From NCBI GenBank assembly GCA_002305115.1, contig DBQF01000001.1:224916-288915 (forward strand): 64,000 nucleotides of DNA. The letters are read 5' to 3'. A program made the position numbers and the translations under genes. This stretch comes from a candidate division WWE3 bacterium UBA1401 (lineage in GTDB: Bacteria; Patescibacteriota; WWE3; UBA101185; UBA10185). Position 1 is the stretch's first letter, and each line of letters opens with the position of its first letter. Shown one piece after another: positions 2,135 to 53,684 of this stretch. The notes under the pieces are model-generated. The model did no database searches. It saw only the letters and a list, made by a program, of their open reading frames with translations, and was not told the DNA's origin.

Positions 2135-2211
2135 AAAAAAACTCCTTGCTTATAGTTTACACTTAAGTTTATTCGTGAGCAAGACCTCCTATTGGTTTTT
2201 TGTTTTTCGAG

Positions 2212-2400
2212 TGGTTGGGGTGATCCTCCTACGTCCTTCGGACTTCGGCGGGCAGGGACTCGGTTACTTGTCAGCAAATGTGGCCGTGCCATCCAAAGCG
2301 TTAACAGTAGTCGATAGAATTATTTCTAAATTGGTATTGTCTAGCTATTCTATAAAGGAAATCTGTCTGCGACGGATGGTCGGGGAAACAGGATTAGAAC
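2212..2400. repeat. left copy of a ~190-bp direct repeat carrying tRNA-Pro 3'-end-like termini
   Basis: Aligns with 9759-9951. The 124-bp core 2262-2385 is identical to 9813-9936. Termini are TGGTTGGGGTGAT (2212-2224) and TGGTCGGGGAAACAGGATTAGAAC (2377-2400, 20/24 identical to the tRNA-Pro 3' end). Confidence 0.85.
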
Positions 2401-3084: not shown

Positions 3085-4211
3085 TGAGAATAGCATTTAC
3101 ATTTCTGACATATGGTACAAATATTTTTGGGGGTATTGAGAATGCACTTTTCAATTTAACTAAAGGCTTGAAGGATATTGGGCATGAGGTCTCTGTTTTT
3201 ACTAGTTCAACATATCTAAGTACTAATGGGAATCTTCCCGCTAACGTATATCAGTCGAAACATCTACCTACAAAATATGATGGGAATGTAAACAGACTCA
3301 TTTCCTATTTGCAAGATCATAGCAAACTTATTAACAGTGACCTTGATTCCTTCCTCGAGAAATGTAAGCCAGACCACGTTGTTGTTGTGGATCCTATTTG
3401 GGGAATCCTAGAAGCGACCGCTTACATTAACAGGAGAAACATCCCCATATCTATGTCTTATCATATAGCCAATGATTGGCCAGAAACAAGACCGATAATG
3501 GAACGTTCCCTACTTAACCAATACGCTAACTTTTTTGTTGTAAGCAGGTTTTTGGAAACAGAAATAAAAGGTAAATTTAATGTGGCTAGGGATGTAAAAA
3601 TGAAAATTTTACCAAACTCTATCGATACTTCCTTATATAGTGATCCTTCTAGCATTCCAGAGGAATATATCTTCTGTAATTCAAGGATAGCGGAAGGAAA
3701 AAATGTTGACGTCTTAGTCAATGCCTTCAGCACAATTAAGGACGATGGTTTGGAATTAGTACTTTGTACAGGAAAATTTCCTTTTGGGGATTCCGCTAAC
3801 GTAGTTAATAAAATGGAAAGACTTGTCAAAGAACTACGGATAGAGAATCAAGTTAAATTTTTACCCAACATAAATTGGGTGGATGTCCCAGCGATGGTTA
3901 AGAAATCCTATGCTGTTGTATTACCCTCAACTTATGAGACGTTTGGAATCGCAGCACTAGAAGCCTCCGTTGCTGGTGTTCCTCTGATAGTTGCGGATGC
4001 CACGAATTTTAAGAATCTTGTAAAACGGAATGCACTTTTTTTTACACCGAATGCTATAGAAGATCTAAGCAAAAAAATACGGACGCTACGTAGAAATTAC
4101 AAATACTATAGAGACAAATCTAGTAAAGACAAAGTGCATTTTATAAATAACTTCGATAATATAGTTGTTGCAGAAAGGCTTGTGAATGAAATACATTCTA
4201 ACAACGTGTAG
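3081..4211 (+). CDS. glycosyltransferase family 4 (GT-B)
   Basis: 'GGIENALFNL' N-terminal motif and 'YETFGIAALEASVAGVPLIV' C-terminal motif. TGATG overlap with the upstream gene. Confidence 0.85.
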   Translation: MMRIAFTFLTYGTNIFGGIENALFNLTKGLKDIGHEVSVFTSSTYLSTNGNLPANVYQSKHLPTKYDGNVNRLISYLQDHSKLINSDLDSFLEKCKPDHVVVVDPIWGILEATAYINRRNIPISMSYHIANDWPETRPIMERSLLNQYANFFVVSRFLETEIKGKFNVARDVKMKILPNSIDTSLYSDPSSIPEEYIFCNSRIAEGKNVDVLVNAFSTIKDDGLELVLCTGKFPFGDSANVVNKMERLVKELRIENQVKFLPNINWVDVPAMVKKSYAVVLPSTYETFGIAALEASVAGVPLIVADATNFKNLVKRNALFFTPNAIEDLSKKIRTLRRNYKYYRDKSSKDKVHFINNFDNIVVAERLVNEIHSNNV

Positions 4212-4593
4212 TAAAGACAAAGATGAGAGCAAGGTCCTTCTTCCAGCTATTCAGAGATATACGGACAACCGTGTTGCATATGTATACAGAATAAGCAAGA
4301 AATTGTCGTTACCCATGATCATATTTTCTGGTAAATACGGGATCTTGAAAACCAATGATCCGATTCCATTTTATGACCTTAGATTGGAGAAAGAACATGT
4401 TGATGCAATGGTTGAAAAGGTTGCGGGTCAGTTCCACCAGTTAAGTGTTTCCAAAATAGATTTCTATGGTTTAGATGAACAAACTCATACTGATTGGGTA
4501 CCCTACTATGATGTTATTAGAGAGGTTTGTGTACAAGTTGGTACAGAACTGAATATTATCCATTTAAAAGAGAGTGAATATGCCACAAAATAA
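4186..4593 (+). CDS. hypothetical protein (135 aa)
   Basis: ORF overlapping both neighbours within the GT operon. No firm motif. Confidence 0.5.
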   Translation: MKYILTTCSKDKDESKVLLPAIQRYTDNRVAYVYRISKKLSLPMIIFSGKYGILKTNDPIPFYDLRLEKEHVDAMVEKVAGQFHQLSVSKIDFYGLDEQTHTDWVPYYDVIREVCVQVGTELNIIHLKESEYATK

Positions 4594-5809
4594 ACCTTTT
4601 TTACCGCACTGGTTTAAGTATATTGACTTGGAAAGCAAGAGACAGTTCAATGCTGAACTGTTCAAGGATGGTTCATTTCGTATTTATGAGCGTGAAACTA
4701 TCAGAGGTCAGGATCAAAACATTGCAATTTTTCTCGATGGTGTATTCCACCCCACTACAACAGGAGCTGCCTATTACTTTATGAATCTTTTGGTAGGCCT
4801 TGCAGGAAGTCCGCTAAATGTTTTTTTGTTTAGATGTTATAGAGGGTGGGAAGATCCATATATTTATGAAAAATTACCATTTAGTACTGTATGTATAGAT
4901 CCAGAAGTATTTTATGATGATCTTACGTCACAAATAGACGTATTACGAAAATACTCTATTCGTACTCTGATTTTTGACACATCTGAAGTTATTTTACGAC
5001 AAGGGGTTTACTTTAAGGAGACTTTGAAATCAAAAATAATCCACGATATACAAAATGTAGACCATGTTTTATCGAAAATGGGAGGTTTGTCCCCTGATGT
5101 AGTGGAAAAACAAAAACAAGAACTTCTCGCTGCAGATAAATACGTGGATTTATATTGGGCAAAGACGGAAATGGATAAAGTACAACTACAGAATGTAGGG
5201 ATAGACCCGCATAAAATCAGAGTAAGGCATCCTATTATTGATACTAAGAGAATACGTTACTCCTTAAGGAAGAAACTAGGAAATCCTGTTAAAGCACTCT
5301 TCCTTGGAAACATGTCTTATCCCCCCAATATAGAGGGTTTAGAAGTCCTGGAGAACACCTACAAAGATTGTGTGACGAATGGCATTAGGCTTGAAATTGA
5401 CGTTGTAGGAGAAGGTGATTTGGCAACGCTTGCAGAGAAGTTCCCCCACCTCAATTTAAAAGGTAAAGTGGATAGCATAAATGACCTCTTCTTGGATTAT
5501 CATTTAGCATTCGCTTGTCCCTCGTATGGATCAGGTATTAGCCTTAAGGTTTTGGATTATATGGCAGCTGGATTGCCTGTTATAGCAAATGACATAGGAG
5601 TTAGAGGACATTCCCAACTGATCAGTAATTATGTCCTGATCGATAACAGAGAGTCACTTTATCCCGCTGTTCAGAGGTTATTCGAGAACCCCGAGTTTTA
5701 TACTCGTTTGAGTTCGTCAAGCCGAGTATATATAGACAAATATTTTAATCCGGAAAAAGATATACGTACCTTTGAGGATGATATAAGGGAAATTAATCTC
5801 TGTCCTTGA
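4574..5809 (+). CDS. glycosyltransferase (GT-B, GT4-like C-terminal domain)
   Basis: C-terminal 'GSGISLKVLDYMAAGLPVIAND' resembles the Glycos_transf_1 motif. Confidence 0.7.
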   Translation: MNMPQNKPFLPHWFKYIDLESKRQFNAELFKDGSFRIYERETIRGQDQNIAIFLDGVFHPTTTGAAYYFMNLLVGLAGSPLNVFLFRCYRGWEDPYIYEKLPFSTVCIDPEVFYDDLTSQIDVLRKYSIRTLIFDTSEVILRQGVYFKETLKSKIIHDIQNVDHVLSKMGGLSPDVVEKQKQELLAADKYVDLYWAKTEMDKVQLQNVGIDPHKIRVRHPIIDTKRIRYSLRKKLGNPVKALFLGNMSYPPNIEGLEVLENTYKDCVTNGIRLEIDVVGEGDLATLAEKFPHLNLKGKVDSINDLFLDYHLAFACPSYGSGISLKVLDYMAAGLPVIANDIGVRGHSQLISNYVLIDNRESLYPAVQRLFENPEFYTRLSSSSRVYIDKYFNPEKDIRTFEDDIREINLCP

Positions 5810-6984: not shown

Positions 6985-7719
6985 ATGACAACAGACTTAC
7001 TCGATAAAGCCTTTAAACTTCTAAGAAGGAATTATGGTTGCCCCGGTCTAGATGGCGTTTCTTTAAGAGAGATAAAAAAAGATTATAACAAGCATAAAAA
7101 TGTGGTTTTGGGCAAATATACTGAGAATCAAGTAAACTCCTTGTCAATAAAGACAACTACTATAATTGATTATGGAGGTAAAGAAAGGGAAATATTTGTT
7201 TATTGCATCCATGAAAGATGGTTGCAAATGTACCTGAAATTACAAATTGAACATGACATTGAGAAGAACTTGAAAAGTTATGTTTTCGGTTATAGAAAAG
7301 GTGTGACAATGAAGGACTTGCATAGCTACTTACTTAATACCGGTCTCGAGCATATCCTTCATTTAGATATAGCCAAATATTTTGATCAAATTGATAGAGA
7401 ATCACTCTTTAATTTTCTAGAACACAATATTGGTGTAAGTAGAGACATCCTTGTTAAGATTCAAAAGAGTGTTTCTCATACAAATAAAGGATTGCCGCAA
7501 GGCAATGTTTTGTCCCCTATTCTATCAAATGTCTACCTTATACCCTTTGATAAGTGCTTTCCAGAAAATTATGCAAGATTTAGTGATGATCTCTATTTTG
7601 CACTAGGAACTCCCAGGAAAAAGGATGAAATGGTTAAGAAAATTAGCGAGCATCTACTTAAACATAAGCTTAAGATAAATTATAGTAAACTGGAAATTAA
7701 GAATGTTAACAAATTCTAA
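6985..7719 (+). CDS. reverse transcriptase (RNA-directed DNA polymerase), unusually short, no thumb region
   Basis: RT motifs: 'GCPGLDGVS', 'LDIAKYFDQID', 'GLPQGNVLSPILSNVYL', 'RFSDDLYF' (FSDD catalytic box) and 'KLKINYSKLEI'. The ORF ends about 8 aa after the last motif. Confidence 0.85.
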   Translation: MTTDLLDKAFKLLRRNYGCPGLDGVSLREIKKDYNKHKNVVLGKYTENQVNSLSIKTTTIIDYGGKEREIFVYCIHERWLQMYLKLQIEHDIEKNLKSYVFGYRKGVTMKDLHSYLLNTGLEHILHLDIAKYFDQIDRESLFNFLEHNIGVSRDILVKIQKSVSHTNKGLPQGNVLSPILSNVYLIPFDKCFPENYARFSDDLYFALGTPRKKDEMVKKISEHLLKHKLKINYSKLEIKNVNKF

Positions 7720-8569: not shown

Positions 8570-9636
8570 ACGTGGAAATTGTGAATGATGAAGAGTCGTT
8601 TAGAAAGATGGCAGCTGATTGGGAAAAATTATACAAAGTATTTGAGTATACTACACCCTACCAAAGCTGGAATTGGAATTACTTGTACTGGGAGTATTTT
8701 AAAGGGAAAAAGCAGCTAAAAGTATTTAGATATGATTTAGACGGTACTGTTAGCGCAATCTTTCCAATGTGGGTACGAGAACAACTAGGTCTTTCCGTAT
8801 TGGAACCAATAGGAACCAGAGGCACTGATTATATACATTTACTGCTAAAAACTGAGCAAGCAGAAGATGTAATTGATAACTTTCTCGAATGGTTTAGTCT
8901 CTCTAGATTAGACGTTTTAAATTTGGAAGATATACCGCATTCTGCGTTTTATATTAATATTTTGAGAACAAAATCAATTAAACATGGATTGTTTTATTAT
9001 CTAGATAGTAAATACTGCCCTTGTTTTGAAATAGATCTCCCTGATAAATGGGAGGACTATCTAAGAACGTTATCTAAAAGAGATAGGTCTGATATAGATT
9101 ACTACCGCAGATATGCTGCTAGAAACACACAAAATGTTACTTATATACAAGGTGGGTTTAGTGATTTGAAAGAGCACTTTCGTCTACATCAAAAGGTGCG
9201 TGAAAACAGAGGTGACAAAGGAGCCTACAAAATAACTCCTGTTAGAAACCTGGTAACAGAGTATATTTCGTCTTTGGAAAACGAAGGCGACTTGAAATTG
9301 GTTTTTTTGGAAATAGATAAAACGCTTTGTGCAACAATTCTGGGTATCGAGAAAGACTTGGTTAGATTCAATATGACAATAGGGCATGATCCTACATTCT
9401 CTAAGCTAAGACCAGGAACTTTGCTTTATGGATATGATATCGAGAATTGTATCAAGCAAGGTGTAAAGAAGTACGACCTTTCTAGAGGTCCCGACCCTTA
9501 TAAGAGTAAAATGGGAGCAAGGTTGAAGTTTAATACGCGAATGGTGCTAACCAAATCAAAGGAGCATGCTAGTCAGTATTTAGAAAATCAGAAAATATAT
9601 TGGAAGAACGAAGACTACGCACCAACTGAAAAGTAG
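8566..9636 (+). CDS. GNAT-fold acyltransferase, FemAB/CelD (BioF2-like) type
   Basis: N-terminal 'FRKMAADWEKLY...TPYQSWNW' pattern typical of CelD/BioF2-like acetyltransferases. ATGA overlap with the nuclease gene. Confidence 0.65.
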   Translation: MNVEIVNDEESFRKMAADWEKLYKVFEYTTPYQSWNWNYLYWEYFKGKKQLKVFRYDLDGTVSAIFPMWVREQLGLSVLEPIGTRGTDYIHLLLKTEQAEDVIDNFLEWFSLSRLDVLNLEDIPHSAFYINILRTKSIKHGLFYYLDSKYCPCFEIDLPDKWEDYLRTLSKRDRSDIDYYRRYAARNTQNVTYIQGGFSDLKEHFRLHQKVRENRGDKGAYKITPVRNLVTEYISSLENEGDLKLVFLEIDKTLCATILGIEKDLVRFNMTIGHDPTFSKLRPGTLLYGYDIENCIKQGVKKYDLSRGPDPYKSKMGARLKFNTRMVLTKSKEHASQYLENQKIYWKNEDYAPTEK

Positions 9637-9758
9637 CTAAATTAAAAAAATCAAGCCAAGTCAATCAAAACAGCGGTTCGGGAGTTTAAAAAACAACAAG
9701 GCTTTTTGCAAGCCGTTAAAAGAAAATTTAGGCATACTGGTCACTTTGATGCCCATTC

Positions 9759-9951
9759 TGGTCGGGGTGACCCTCCTACGTCCTTCGGACTTCGGCGGGC
9801 AGGCAGGGACTTGGTTACTTGTCAGCAAATGTGGCCGTGCCATCCAAAGCGTTAACAGTAGTCGATAGAATTATTTCTAAATTGGTATTGTCTAGCTATT
9901 CTATAAAGGAAATCTGTCTGCGACGGATGGTCGGGGTGACAGGACTCGAAC
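9759..9951. repeat. right copy of the ~190-bp direct repeat (includes the tRNA-Pro 3' end)
   Basis: See 2212-2400. TGGTCGGGGTGAC at 9759-9771 duplicates the first 13 nt of the tRNA-Pro 3' end found at 9928-9940. Confidence 0.85.
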
Positions 9952-10003
9952 CTGCGGCCTCACGCACCCCATGCGTACGCGCTTCCAACTGCGCTACACC
10001 CCG
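9928..10003 (-). tRNA. tRNA-Pro (anticodon GGG), CCA encoded
   Basis: Manual cloverleaf: CGGGGTG TA GCGC AGTTGGAA GCGC G TACGC ATGGGGT GCGTG AGGCC GCAGG TTCGAGT CCTGT CACCCCG A CCA. Confidence 0.85.
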
Positions 10004-10043
10004 ACGTGCCGCCATGCAAGACAAATGTTGTTGCGGCGGATAA

Positions 10044-10289
10044 TCATAACCTAGTTTTCAAGAATCTTCTCCCAAAACCTGTCTTCAAATACTTTTCTCG
10101 TTTTAAAGCATTTTCTTTACTTAGGCAGCCCTCAAAGTAAACGAGTTCCCAAGGACGCCCATATTTTGTTGCATCCACTTTACCTTTGTTGTGTAACAGA
10201 AGCTGTTTCCTTATTGATTCAGAATAACCTACGTACAATTTACCAGTTTTCTTGCTTTTTAGCACATAGACATAGGTATAGTAAAACAT
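10044..10289 (-). CDS. GIY-YIG nuclease family protein (81 aa)
   Basis: 'YVYVLKSKKTGKLYVGYSESIRKQLLLHN...' has the GIY/YIG motifs. 'ALKREKYLK' C-terminal motif. Confidence 0.85.
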   Translation of the reverse strand: MFYYTYVYVLKSKKTGKLYVGYSESIRKQLLLHNKGKVDATKYGRPWELVYFEGCLSKENALKREKYLKTGFGRRFLKTRL

Positions 10290-10292
10290 CTT

Positions 10293-10366
10293 ACGCTACC
10301 AACTCCCGCCTGCCATCGCAAGACTGAGCTTGCTCAGGCGTTGCGGGCAGGGCGCTACACTCCGCT
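10293..10366 (-). other. tRNA 5'-half-like fragment (acceptor + D-arm) interrupted by a 47-nt hairpin
   Basis: 10293-10304 matches the tRNA-Pro D-arm at 10/12, and 10352-10365 matches D-stem plus 5' acceptor at 12/14. The insert 10305-10351 folds as CCTGCC/CGCAA/CTGAG nested stems. The fragment ends 3 nt before the GIY-YIG ATG. Confidence 0.5.
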
Positions 10367-10455
10367 ATCCTGCTAATTCTCGCTATTTTACCACTTCTTC
10401 CATATACATATTCAAAAATATATGTAAAAATACACTCCAAAGGAGGTGAAGTTAA

Positions 10456-10980
10456 ATGGATGAAATTAATCAAGAAAATACGACTGCTGAAAATCCAACA
10501 GAAGTTCCTCAACCACCTCAACCCCCGGCGGAGCCTCAAGGCCCAATAGAAGCTGCGGCTTCAGTAGCTAGTGTTAACTATGCGACCTTTGGTGAAAGAT
10601 TTGTTGCTCTTATTATCGATGCTTTCTTAGTAGGGTTAGTAACAGGCATATTAGGCGGTATCTTTGGCGTGTCACGAGTACAGTCTGGCGAAGGCTCTGT
10701 GGTTTATTCCAACCCTTTTAGTTTATTAGGTCCTGTCTACTATGTGGTAATGACTGTTATATATGGTGCCACTCTTGGCAAAAAAGTAATGAATATTCGT
10801 GTTAAAAAAGACGGTCAAGAAAGAAACCTTAACTGGGGTGAAGGCATACTTAGAGAAATAATCGGTAAATTCCTGTCAGCTATAGTTCTTTTACTAGGGT
10901 ATCTTTGGATGTTGTGGGATCCAAAAAAGCAAACCTGGCACGACAAACTTGCAGGAAGTGTAGTTGTAAAGACAAAATAA
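10456..10980 (+). CDS. RDD family membrane protein
   Basis: 'ATFGERFVALIIDAFLVGLV' and C-terminal 'WHDKLAGSVVV' are typical of the RDD domain. SD AAAGGAGGTG upstream. Confidence 0.8.
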   Translation: MDEINQENTTAENPTEVPQPPQPPAEPQGPIEAAASVASVNYATFGERFVALIIDAFLVGLVTGILGGIFGVSRVQSGEGSVVYSNPFSLLGPVYYVVMTVIYGATLGKKVMNIRVKKDGQERNLNWGEGILREIIGKFLSAIVLLLGYLWMLWDPKKQTWHDKLAGSVVVKTK

Positions 10981-53125: not shown

Positions 53126-53263
53126 ATCTAATGTATATATATCTTCCCTGAAGTATCAACACTTTGGTTTGAATCTAGGTTATGCATGCATATATTTGCT
53201 AGCCATAAAAGGCTGTCTGAGGCCTCTTGGTCACTTATGTGCCTATTCTGTTGAGAGTCTATG

Positions 53264-53536
53264 TTAACTCGCTAACTCTCGTTCAAAATAACCCTTCAGC
53301 ATTGTAATCAAGGTAGTTCTGCCTCTATTTGTTTTAAGATATTTTTCTCTTCTCAAAGCATCTTGTTTGGAATTGTAACCCTCAAAATGGATTAACTCTA
53401 ATGGTGTGAACTTCTTTGTAGAAGTTACTTCCTTGTTATTGTGTTTGTTGATCCTGTTCTTTAAATTTTCGGTGTATCCAATGTAGATAAAGCTCTTTTG
53501 AGCATTACGCAACACGTAAACAAAATAAAAGGACAT
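53264..53536 (-). CDS. GIY-YIG nuclease family protein (90 aa)
   Basis: 'YFVYVLRNAQKSFIYIGYTENLKNRINKHN' and 'ALRREKYLK'. Paralogue of 10044-10289. Confidence 0.85.
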   Translation of the reverse strand: MSFYFVYVLRNAQKSFIYIGYTENLKNRINKHNNKEVTSTKKFTPLELIHFEGYNSKQDALRREKYLKTNRGRTTLITMLKGYFERELAS

Positions 53537-53655: not shown

Positions 53656-53684
53656 TGGCCTGCCAGGTGCCGAATGGTACCTGG
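53656..53684. repeat. 29-nt hairpin element, copy 1
   Basis: TGGCCTGCCAGGTGCCGAATGGTACCTGG is 25/29 identical to 57928-57956. Stem CCAGGTGCC/GGTACCTGG. Confidence 0.6.

Follow-up and report, generated by a model that had tools for sequence, protein, structure and literature searches.

Genomic islands that target transfer RNA (tRNA) genes carry a tyrosine or serine integrase, which acts at a short core site that usually lies at the tRNA 3' end. In AT-rich genomes, short GC-rich palindromes can multiply, as is known from the repetitive extragenic palindromes (REPs) with their RAYT nucleases and from the GC clusters of yeast mitochondria, and REPs flank, and are tied to, one cognate RAYT nuclease gene. 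Free-standing nuclease genes next to essential genes have been described in two settings. SegB of phage T4 is a free-standing GIY-YIG enzyme that is encoded in a tRNA cluster and spreads by break repair; it recognizes a T-loop motif conserved across tRNA genes and is able to cut several of them, some in its own genome (PMC2330249). In fungal mitochondria, free-standing homing endonuclease open reading frames (ORFs) of the GIY-YIG and LAGLIDADG types adjoin partial C-terminal duplications of atp6 and cob (PMC6279837). Here, we describe a GIY-YIG mini-gene that lies beside a tRNA-Pro gene in a 64,000-nucleotide (nt) stretch of DNA, referred to below as the window, from the candidate division WWE3 bacterium UBA1401 (contig DBQF01000001.1, positions 224,916 to 288,915).

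Sequence comparison indicates that this locus is probably a resident tRNA-Pro gene that was colonized by a homing-type selfish cassette. The cassette consists of a GC-rich palindrome (here termed H) and a bare 81-amino-acid (aa) GIY-YIG gene, and it is embedded in a partial duplication of the 5' part of the tRNA gene. It recurs widely in Patescibacteria, the candidate phyla radiation (CPR), and appears to be undescribed. A literature search on GIY-YIG in combination with CPR or Patescibacteria, tRNA, palindromes, COG2827, and YhbQ yielded no account of the arrangement, and in one paper, a GIY-YIG protein appears only as an entry in a list of genes transferred from Patescibacteria (PMC12455944).

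The tRNA-Pro locus and its empty site

All coordinates of the tRNA-Pro/GIY-YIG locus refer to the minus strand, and L-numbers denote homologous loci fetched from reference genomes and metagenome contigs. The intact tRNA-Pro(GGG) gene (copy B; 9928 to 10003) was identified by ARAGORN and by Rfam (59.3 bits). Upstream of it lies the GIY-YIG mini-gene (10044 to 10289), which was recognized by a Pfam profile match and encodes a Slx1/UPF0213-like protein with the catalytic domain only. About 3 to 4 nt before the ATG of this ORF, at 10289, ends a second, partial copy of the tRNA 5' region (copy A), which is in two parts. The first part (10352 to 10364; CGGAGTGTAGCGC, compared with CGGGGTGTAGCGC in the tRNA) corresponds to tRNA-Pro positions 1 to 13 and is identical at 12 of them, and the second (10294 to 10304; AGTTGGTAGCG, compared with AGTTGGAAGCG) corresponds to positions 14 to 24, with 10 of 11 identical. 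The two parts are contiguous in the tRNA; at the locus, they are separated by exactly 47 nt (10351 to 10305). This clean insert between positions 13 and 14 of copy A is H (10305 to 10351), an imperfect palindrome that forms a hairpin of 6+5+5 bp (−12.3 kcal/mol as DNA; z = −1.9). A preliminary description of the locus, made from the sequence alone, had reported a split copy of the tRNA 5' half, a 47-nt hairpin insert, the GIY-YIG ORF, and the real tRNA-Pro downstream, and the coordinates and identities of all of these were confirmed. The loop of H is CAAG on the coding strand, and the CTTG given previously is the plus-strand reading.

The stop codon of the ORF and the start of the intact tRNA-Pro are 40 nt apart, and the spacer holds a shorter member of the H palindrome family (H'; 10009 to 10039; CCGCCGCAAC...CTTGCATGGCGG), which ends in the leader 5 nt before the tRNA. 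H' folds with z = −2.5 and is similar to the H of L006, and an H abuts tRNA +1 in the equivalent position at L011, L012, L019, and L046. At the other end of the locus, an extended −10-like box, TGGTAAAAT (10385 to 10393), was read from the sequence 20 nt upstream of the 5' fragment and is presumed to be the native promoter of the resident tRNA-Pro gene. The two other tRNAs of the window are uninterrupted and have a TGGTAAAAT or TGCTATAAT box at a similar spacing. A −35/−10 promoter scan of 9600 to 10600 returned no site. Across the fetched loci, this class of −10 motif occurred upstream of 15 of 34 5' fragments, compared with 17% of background, a count of our own motif that is suggestive only.

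Within the window, the two-block match to the tRNA was moderately significant: its score was equaled by 2 of 1,000 dinucleotide shuffles, and it was the best non-self hit among 1,020 window tiles. The comparative data made the match decisive. Orthologues of the flanking acetyltransferase were found in syntenic contexts at 84%, 66%, and 64% amino acid identity, with a shared gene order of reverse transcriptase gene, 5'-3' exonuclease gene, acetyltransferase gene, and then the tRNA region. The NpmA-like methyltransferase gene beyond the tRNA was present only on the L167 and L168 contigs, the 84% and 66% contigs ending soon after the acetyltransferase gene. At the same position, L167 to L169 carry a plain tRNA-Pro(GGG) with a −10 box reading TGATAAAAT, a 14-nt leader, and the trailer directly after the gene, and no ORF, H, or fragment was found at this tRNA-Pro site. 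Over positions 1 to 63, this tRNA-Pro and copy B share 93% identity.

The comparison also accounted for the sequences downstream of the intact tRNA. An exact 13-nt duplicate of the tRNA-Pro 3' end (copy C; 9759 to 9771; GTCACCCCGACCA) lies 156 nt downstream of the tRNA and runs straight into the native tRNA-Pro trailer (9700 to 9758), as the tRNA does in the relatives L165, L166, and L167. The trailer comprises a small hairpin and a terminator-like stem followed by a T-run (9714 to 9700), and copy C and the trailer together (through 9758 to 9700) align to the 3' end and trailer of the tRNA-Pro of L167 to L169. On this alignment, the resident tRNA-Pro gene originally ended in copy C. Between copies B and C lies X (9772 to 9927), a noncoding repeat of 156 nt that is missing from the empty-site relatives.

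Since syntenic relatives have a plain tRNA-Pro, the window has two insertions around one resident gene. As delimited by these alignments, the first is the GIY-YIG/H cassette with its duplicated 5' segment, and the second, which is independent, is X (9927 to 9772) together with the 13-nt duplication at the tRNA 3' end. The uninterrupted tRNA-Pro of L167 to L169 is an intact empty allele in relatives, one of the features by which a homing gene is recognized. The proposal in the preliminary description that a nuclease cassette inserted into the 5' part of a tRNA gene, or duplicated it, and left the locus as its footprint is thus supported by the empty site in a syntenic relative.

Recurrence of the cassette in other genomes

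To place the locus in context, 80 reference-genome loci of homologues of the ORF were fetched and scanned for tRNAs. The great majority of the relatives of the ORF were in Patescibacteria/CPR, some were in Bacteroidota and other phyla, and the short-form proteins (78 to 83 aa) formed one clade in the tree. A same-strand tRNA started no more than 120 nt from the stop codon in 32 of the 39 short-form ORFs that could be evaluated and no more than 20 nt from it in 27 of 42, with the ORF and the tRNA overlapping in some; nine tRNA identities adjoin short-form ORFs. Among the long-form ORFs, an adjoining tRNA was found for 3 of 43; the starts of two of these (L025 and L077) were mis-called inside H, and the third (L044) runs 10 nt into the tRNA.

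A cognate tRNA 5' fragment split by H was found at about 28 of the 36 tRNA-adjacent loci, so that the systematic flanking of GIY-YIG mini-genes of this clade by cognate tRNA 5' fragments, put forward earlier as a check, was borne out. The usual order is the cognate tRNA 5' fragment, H, the next 6 to 22 tRNA bases, the ORF, and the intact tRNA, and exact matches between fragment and tRNA extended up to 21 nt, compared with about 10 nt in shuffles. In 25 of 28 loci, the fragment and the tRNA downstream of it had the same acceptor strand, and fragments had a mean of 0.14 mismatches to their own tRNA versus 2.4 to same-isotype tRNAs of other genomes, a comparison with some ascertainment bias, since detection needs a fragment that resembles the tRNA. 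The essential tRNA is kept, because an intact copy is rebuilt immediately after the ORF. In most relatives, 0 to 20 nt separate the stop codon from tRNA +1, which leaves no room for a separate promoter, and we infer that the intact tRNA is read through the ORF.

The layout is not restricted to the 5' ends of tRNA genes. It was found in full at the N terminus of NAD-epimerase genes at two independent loci (L024 and L156), in the order 5' codons, H, next codons, ORF, and intact gene; the gene-start copies encode the same amino acids, and the differences between them are mostly synonymous. In these two different genomes, the insertion in the NAD-dependent epimerase gene is at one and the same codon, within the GGAGFIGS (Rossmann) motif, and the target DNA, GGAGCTGGATTYATYGG, is loosely like a tRNA D-arm, which may explain an off-target insertion. 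Mirror-image layouts were found at 3' ends: L072 consists of a tRNA-Gly, the ORF, and a 13-nt 3' copy, and L132 consists of the 3' end of a protein gene, H, and a 27-nt copy. Tandem cassette arrays occur at L059, with identical units, and at L020, with diverged units. As judged from the sequences of these units, the arrays show that the repeats recombine or are reinvaded.

The arrays and the protein-gene targets bear on an alternative that we regard as very unlikely, namely, that a Campbell-type circle is integrated and excised by host homologous recombination via a tRNA 5' segment that it carries; there would be no nuclease break, and the nuclease would have another role, such as resolving the palindrome. 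A single crossover with a 5' gene fragment would give exactly the product observed (a truncated copy, the insert, and an intact copy), the direct repeats would permit the reverse reaction, the tandem arrays are a sign of recombination between repeats, and synonymous differences in a protein-gene target are those expected of a fragment that was carried in. However, the homology available to such a crossover would be about 10 to 40 bp and would be interrupted by H, and no circular form or junction was seen. The acceptor-strand match would also be unexplained unless transfer were restricted to near-identical tRNAs, a restriction that the homing model needs as well.

Homing of the cassette would predict that it is more similar between genomes than the DNA around it is, and few pairs of loci could be compared in this respect. 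At a tRNA-Lys locus in four related populations, the ORF was 99 to 100% identical in three (L121, L122, and L139), and the end of the adjacent upstream gene was 83 to 92% identical. Between L056 and L071, the cassette was 96.8% identical, versus 85 to 89% for the flanks (including recA). One pair, L121 and L145, gave similar divergence in the two parts and is considered below with the points that weigh against homing.

Two further loci have more elaborate arrangements. At L114 (Ga0213870_1008948), the halves of a tRNA-Val (acceptor GGGCGTT/AACGCCC, with H in the D-loop) enclose a complete second tRNA-Val with a different, internally compensated acceptor stem and with a complementary leader and trailer; the arrangement looks like the insertion of an entire tRNA gene into the anticodon loop of its homologue. 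L071 differs from its close relative L056 by a 1.8-kb insertion (3313 to 5112) directly after the tRNA-Pro 3' end, which encodes a 317-aa hypothetical protein and starts with a T-arm-like fragment bearing a mini-palindrome.

The palindrome and the nuclease

The H of the window is identical at 43 of 47 nt to the H of L007, L023, and L025, and the termini of the family, CCCGCC(C/T)GC...GC(G/A)GGCGGG, are conserved. H inserts cleanly, with the tRNA sequence resuming after it, and its insertion sites cluster on the D-arm (between positions 9 and 10, at 12 to 14, and at 18 to 22) and occasionally fall on the T-arm. Both orientations relative to the ORF and the tRNA were found, and at L001, L015, L055, and L017, one H is nested in the loop of another. 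One H subtype was searched for in metagenome contigs as a 34-nt core pattern (with two Ns and one R), which gave 82 matches representing 70 distinct contexts. The ORF was present within 90 nt in 32 of the 70 contexts, about 15 carried H with a partial tRNA duplication and no ORF, including tandem units (L087), one was a full-length tRNA-His interrupted by H, and a few were the ends of protein genes. The H core had no match in IMG/VR viral contigs, and hence there was no sign of a phage origin.

These properties were used to weigh the second option of the preliminary description, a tRNA-like leader for processing of the nuclease mRNA, in a wider form in which the tRNA-like segment and the hairpin act as RNA, imitate the 5' half of a tRNA, and serve in processing, stability, or regulation. 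The tRNA promoter almost certainly drives a transcript that includes both the fragment and the ORF, an mRNA can be stabilized by a stable hairpin at its 5' end, and the fragment remains identical to the local tRNA, all of which a leader would accommodate. Nevertheless, H occurs in both orientations and at varying positions (after tRNA position 8 to 21), it follows the ORF in some loci, and the layout exists at the 5' end of a protein gene and without any ORF. Neither Rfam nor ARAGORN matched the fragment: Rfam searches of the whole window at gathering thresholds and of 9600 to 10500 at E values up to 10 returned three tRNAs and two chance-level snoRNA hits, with none for the fragment or H. In the predicted transcript, H and the cloverleaf fold separately, with no pairing between fragment and tRNA and with z = −0.6. 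Because both orientations, nesting, ORF-less units, and protein-gene targets are found, H is best understood as an insertion at the DNA level, and an RNA leader is extremely unlikely.

Related RNA-based candidates were also rejected. The fragment is not itself a tRNA or a tRNA-like RNA, since nothing was detected at 10290 to 10366 even at E values up to 10 and since it covers positions 1 to 24 only and has no 3' half. Pairing of the 5' fragment with the 3' strand of the downstream tRNA was absent from the predicted fold. A group I intron was discarded because there was no Rfam intron match, the ORF lies outside the intact tRNA, and the insertion points are in the D-arm.

A different question is whether H moves by itself. 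If H were the sole mobile agent, it would resemble a miniature inverted-repeat transposable element (MITE) with a preference for the tRNA D-arm; insertion or repair would make the duplications, with no catalysis by the GIY-YIG protein, whose gene would either be carried along or belong to the host and merely tend to lie upstream of tRNAs. MITE-like features are present (conserved terminal arms, the 82 core matches, and an ORF lying between the two arms of an H at L036), but against them stand the lack of a consistent target-site duplication and the low number of copies (2 to 3) in the 64-kb window. Autonomy of H is favored by the roughly 15 metagenome loci that carry H and a partial tRNA duplication but no ORF and by L144, where H simply interrupts a full-length tRNA-His, as well as by the retention of 43 of 47 nt of H between genomes whose ORF proteins are about 60% identical, which makes H far more conserved than the ORF DNA. 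UPF0213 proteins are, in addition, common host genes. On the other side, H is nearly confined to the surroundings of the ORF, an H arm being found beside 38 of 42 short ORFs versus 1.6% of background windows. The window has H at the tRNA-Pro/GIY-YIG locus and nowhere else, and nearly half of the subtype contexts have the ORF close by, as given above. At L036, the ORF lies between the arms of an H, the ORF-less units look like deletion derivatives, and no other candidate enzyme is linked to H. We therefore consider it unlikely that H is the sole mobile agent. At L144 (JGI24025J20009_10002982), which lies at a contig end, the full-length tRNA-His is broken only by H, between positions 18 and 19, and no intact tRNA-His is present on the part of the contig seen; this tRNA-His could be a dead duplicate or, less likely, a tRNA that tolerates or removes the insert.

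The protein was then examined as the other half of the cassette. The 81-aa ORF matched PF01541 with an E value of 1.3e−13 and 51 bits (cutoff, 22.6), and this single Pfam domain spans residues 5 to 72. Six residues (Y8, Y19, H33, E53, R64, and E65) are invariant across 29 homologues and are kept in the window protein, and ratios of nonsynonymous to synonymous substitution rates (dN/dS) of 0.06 to 0.22 among the family ORFs indicate that the short-form ORFs are under purifying selection. The AlphaFold2 model (pLDDT, 94.5) has a beta-beta-alpha-beta-alpha-alpha core. In Foldseek, its best matches were chains of Slx1 nuclease domains (E = 3e−4 to 2e−3; TM score, 0.70 to 0.74; 26 to 35% identity), followed by UPF0213 protein BH0048 (1zg2; E = 3.5e−4), with I-TevI at E = 0.3 and UvrC at E = 0.6. 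The best PDB sequence match by phmmer was 1zg2 (E = 1.5e−3), with SLX1 at 0.14. By these sequence and model comparisons, the protein belongs to the Slx1/UPF0213 branch of GIY-YIG proteins and is nearer to it in sequence and fold than to I-TevI or UvrC. An I-TevI/SegB-type enzyme was rejected, as the protein has 81 aa and one catalytic domain, without a joined DNA-binding domain. Both the Slx1-like fold of the model and the lack of a DNA-binding domain point to hairpin or cruciform DNA, and not a long sequence, as what the protein would recognize. The exact 81-aa sequence is missing from a collection of 15 billion proteins in which a flanking protein of the same genome is present; public annotation probably missed the ORF or gave it another start.

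Two sequences elsewhere in the window are related to the locus. A second copy of X at 2225 to 2376 is 96.8% identical to the first, and the module that contains it (2210 to 2400, minus strand) is flanked by tRNA-Pro-like 3' pieces (GTTCTAATCCTGTTTCCCCGACCA ... ATCACCCCAACCA). Two contigs that were assembled independently from the same sample stop within X, and a tblastn search of the 156-nt X for a decayed GIY-YIG gene gave noise-level matches only. X ends in a decayed H-like arm (9815 to 9772); its fold is no better than that of shuffles (z = −0.1), so it was rejected as a third palindrome and is termed an H-like arm only. The other relative is a second GIY-YIG paralogue of 90 aa (53264 to 53536, minus strand), which was assigned to the long-form clade by Pfam and the tree. 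The preliminary description had treated this paralogue as analogous because a hairpin lies upstream of it. The hairpin (53656 to 53684; z = −3.2) does exist, and a copy of the tRNA-Pro 3' end follows the gene, but the hairpin is outside the H family, and no H arms, gene-end repeats, or tRNA 5' fragments were found around 53264 to 53536, so the analogy holds weakly. Directly after the paralogue, a diverged copy of the tRNA-Pro 3' end and trailer module (53190 to 53263, minus strand) aligns over about 70 nt to 9700 to 9771. A 23-nt motif that is part of the native tRNA-Pro trailer is common to the two regions, where none is expected by chance, and it had no match in 163 fetched loci. The alignment hints that the second paralogue was once at a tRNA 3' end, in a mirror-image layout like that of L072, although no tRNA adjoins it now.

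Among the neighboring genes, other ORFs near the insert encode an RDD protein, a methyltransferase, and an acetyltransferase. The reverse transcriptase gene of the window (6985 to 7719, plus strand; 244 aa; RVT_1, E = 3e−21) is directly upstream of the 5'-3' exonuclease gene and overlaps it slightly. This pair is kept in L165 to L169, and the reverse transcriptase of L165 is fused to a PIG-L domain.

Proposed mode of spread and comparison with known systems

A working model of the cassette can be formulated from the layouts described above. Transcription would start at the original tRNA promoter and proceed through the ORF into the intact tRNA, and RNase P cleavage at tRNA +1 would release the 3' end of the mRNA. 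Spread would involve the following steps: (i) an uninterrupted target is cut by the nuclease within the D-arm, the DNA of which forms hairpins; (ii) the left end of the break (tRNA 1 to N) invades the interrupted copy of the donor; (iii) H, the ORF, the leader, and tRNA 1 to N are copied during repair; and (iv) the new strand reanneals to the right end of the break. H, placed at the break site, would inactivate that site in the upstream copy and would split a direct repeat that could otherwise delete the cassette. Homing of this kind would give the observed layout, force the donor 5' strand to match the acceptor stem of the recipient, allow synonymous differences between the copies in protein-gene targets, produce tandem arrays upon renewed cutting of the downstream copy, and let ORF-less derivatives be mobilized in trans.

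Several points weigh against colonization by a homing-type cassette. The break at the D-arm, cleavage by the nuclease, and the repair pathway are steps that we infer from the layouts. A protein with the catalytic domain only would not be expected to carry out sequence-specific homing in the manner of I-TevI or SegB, and UPF0213/YhbQ-type proteins are ordinary single-copy host genes of unassigned role that are common in many bacteria. The intact downstream tRNA has the same D-arm and should be cleavable; tandem arrays fit such cutting, and the tolerance of the intact copy is left unexplained. The simple model likewise does not explain how a cassette comes to carry the 5' segment of a tRNA type that is new to it, and L114, with a tRNA-Val of a different acceptor stem inside the two halves of another, does not fit it. 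Finally, at L121 and L145, the synonymous divergence (dS) of the ORF is 0.28 versus 0.39 for the flank, and this similar divergence fits vertical descent.

A broader proposal, which we put forward tentatively and consider possible but doubtful, is that the cassette represents an unrecognized class of mobile element. A Slx1-like, structure-selective nuclease of about 78 aa that has no DNA-binding domain would find hairpin DNA (the D-arm or T-arm of a tRNA gene or the loop of its own palindrome), mobilize itself together with a palindrome of 35 to 85 nt that acts as a site blocker or immunity insert, and rebuild its target by duplicating the gene end, thereby becoming wired into the tRNA units of genome-reduced Patescibacteria. 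If the homing-type reading of the locus is correct, the cassette would be among the smallest self-contained selfish DNA units known, with one catalytic domain and one palindrome in about 0.3 kb. It would invade single-copy essential tRNA genes, rebuild them by partial duplication, and sit between the tRNA and its promoter, where, under the model, silencing of the cassette would also silence the downstream tRNA. Such elements would explain why genes for a "GIY-YIG family protein," tRNA fragments, GC-rich hairpins, and assembly breaks cluster in CPR genomes, and they would improve the annotation of pseudo-tRNA fragments and of missed small ORFs. The UPF0213/YhbQ family would gain a hypothesis for its function, structure-selective cleavage of hairpin-forming DNA, and the cassette would be a natural marker of gene flow among Patescibacteria populations.

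By analogy, the locus would be of a known kind, the free-standing homing-type nuclease genes. With SegB it shares a GIY-YIG gene that lies among or next to tRNA genes and outside introns, with tRNA-gene DNA as the target. SegB differs in having a C-terminal DNA-binding region (NUMOD3) and a 27-bp site in the T-arm/3' end, in being a phage gene, and in lacking a partial tRNA duplication and a palindrome, whereas the insertions described here are in the D-arm and in cellular Patescibacteria, and the protein is a bare catalytic domain of 78 to 82 aa from the Slx1/UPF0213 branch. The fungal mitochondrial ORFs are similar in that a nuclease ORF sits at the end of an essential gene, the duplicated end keeps one copy intact, and the displaced fragment is left as debris. 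In that case, the 3' ends of organellar protein genes are involved; here, they are mostly tRNA 5' ends in bacteria, and a palindrome splits the fragment, although 3' mirror versions occur here too (L072, L132, and X of the window).

Comparison with the palindrome systems and with genomic islands gives a similar picture. RAYTs are HUH/Y1 enzymes, and REPs are intergenic and present in hundreds of copies, whereas H stays by the nuclease gene in tRNA-derived sequence. Genomic islands resemble the cassette in their tRNA target, in the duplicated gene end that leaves an intact tRNA, and in the fragment that marks the other boundary. The insert described here, in contrast, has no integrase and measures about 0.3 kb; it is the 5' end that is duplicated, with a palindrome dividing the displaced fragment. 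An integrase-mediated tRNA island was rejected accordingly, because the insert holds only the 81-aa ORF and no recombinase, and an integron attC-like site was rejected by sequence inspection and for want of an integrase.

The protein itself is closest to Slx1 and UPF0213 (YhbQ and BH0048), with which it shares the fold and, in the case of UPF0213, the small single-domain size. Slx1 differs in having an extra RING/PHD domain and in partnering with Slx4 as a structure-specific repair nuclease. To our knowledge, neither Slx1 nor UPF0213 has been found in mobile cassettes or tied to tRNA genes, and a literature search found no such case. The system described here differs from these precedents in its combination of a bare Slx1/UPF0213-type domain, a dedicated palindrome, duplication of the tRNA 5' end, and hosts among the Patescibacteria.

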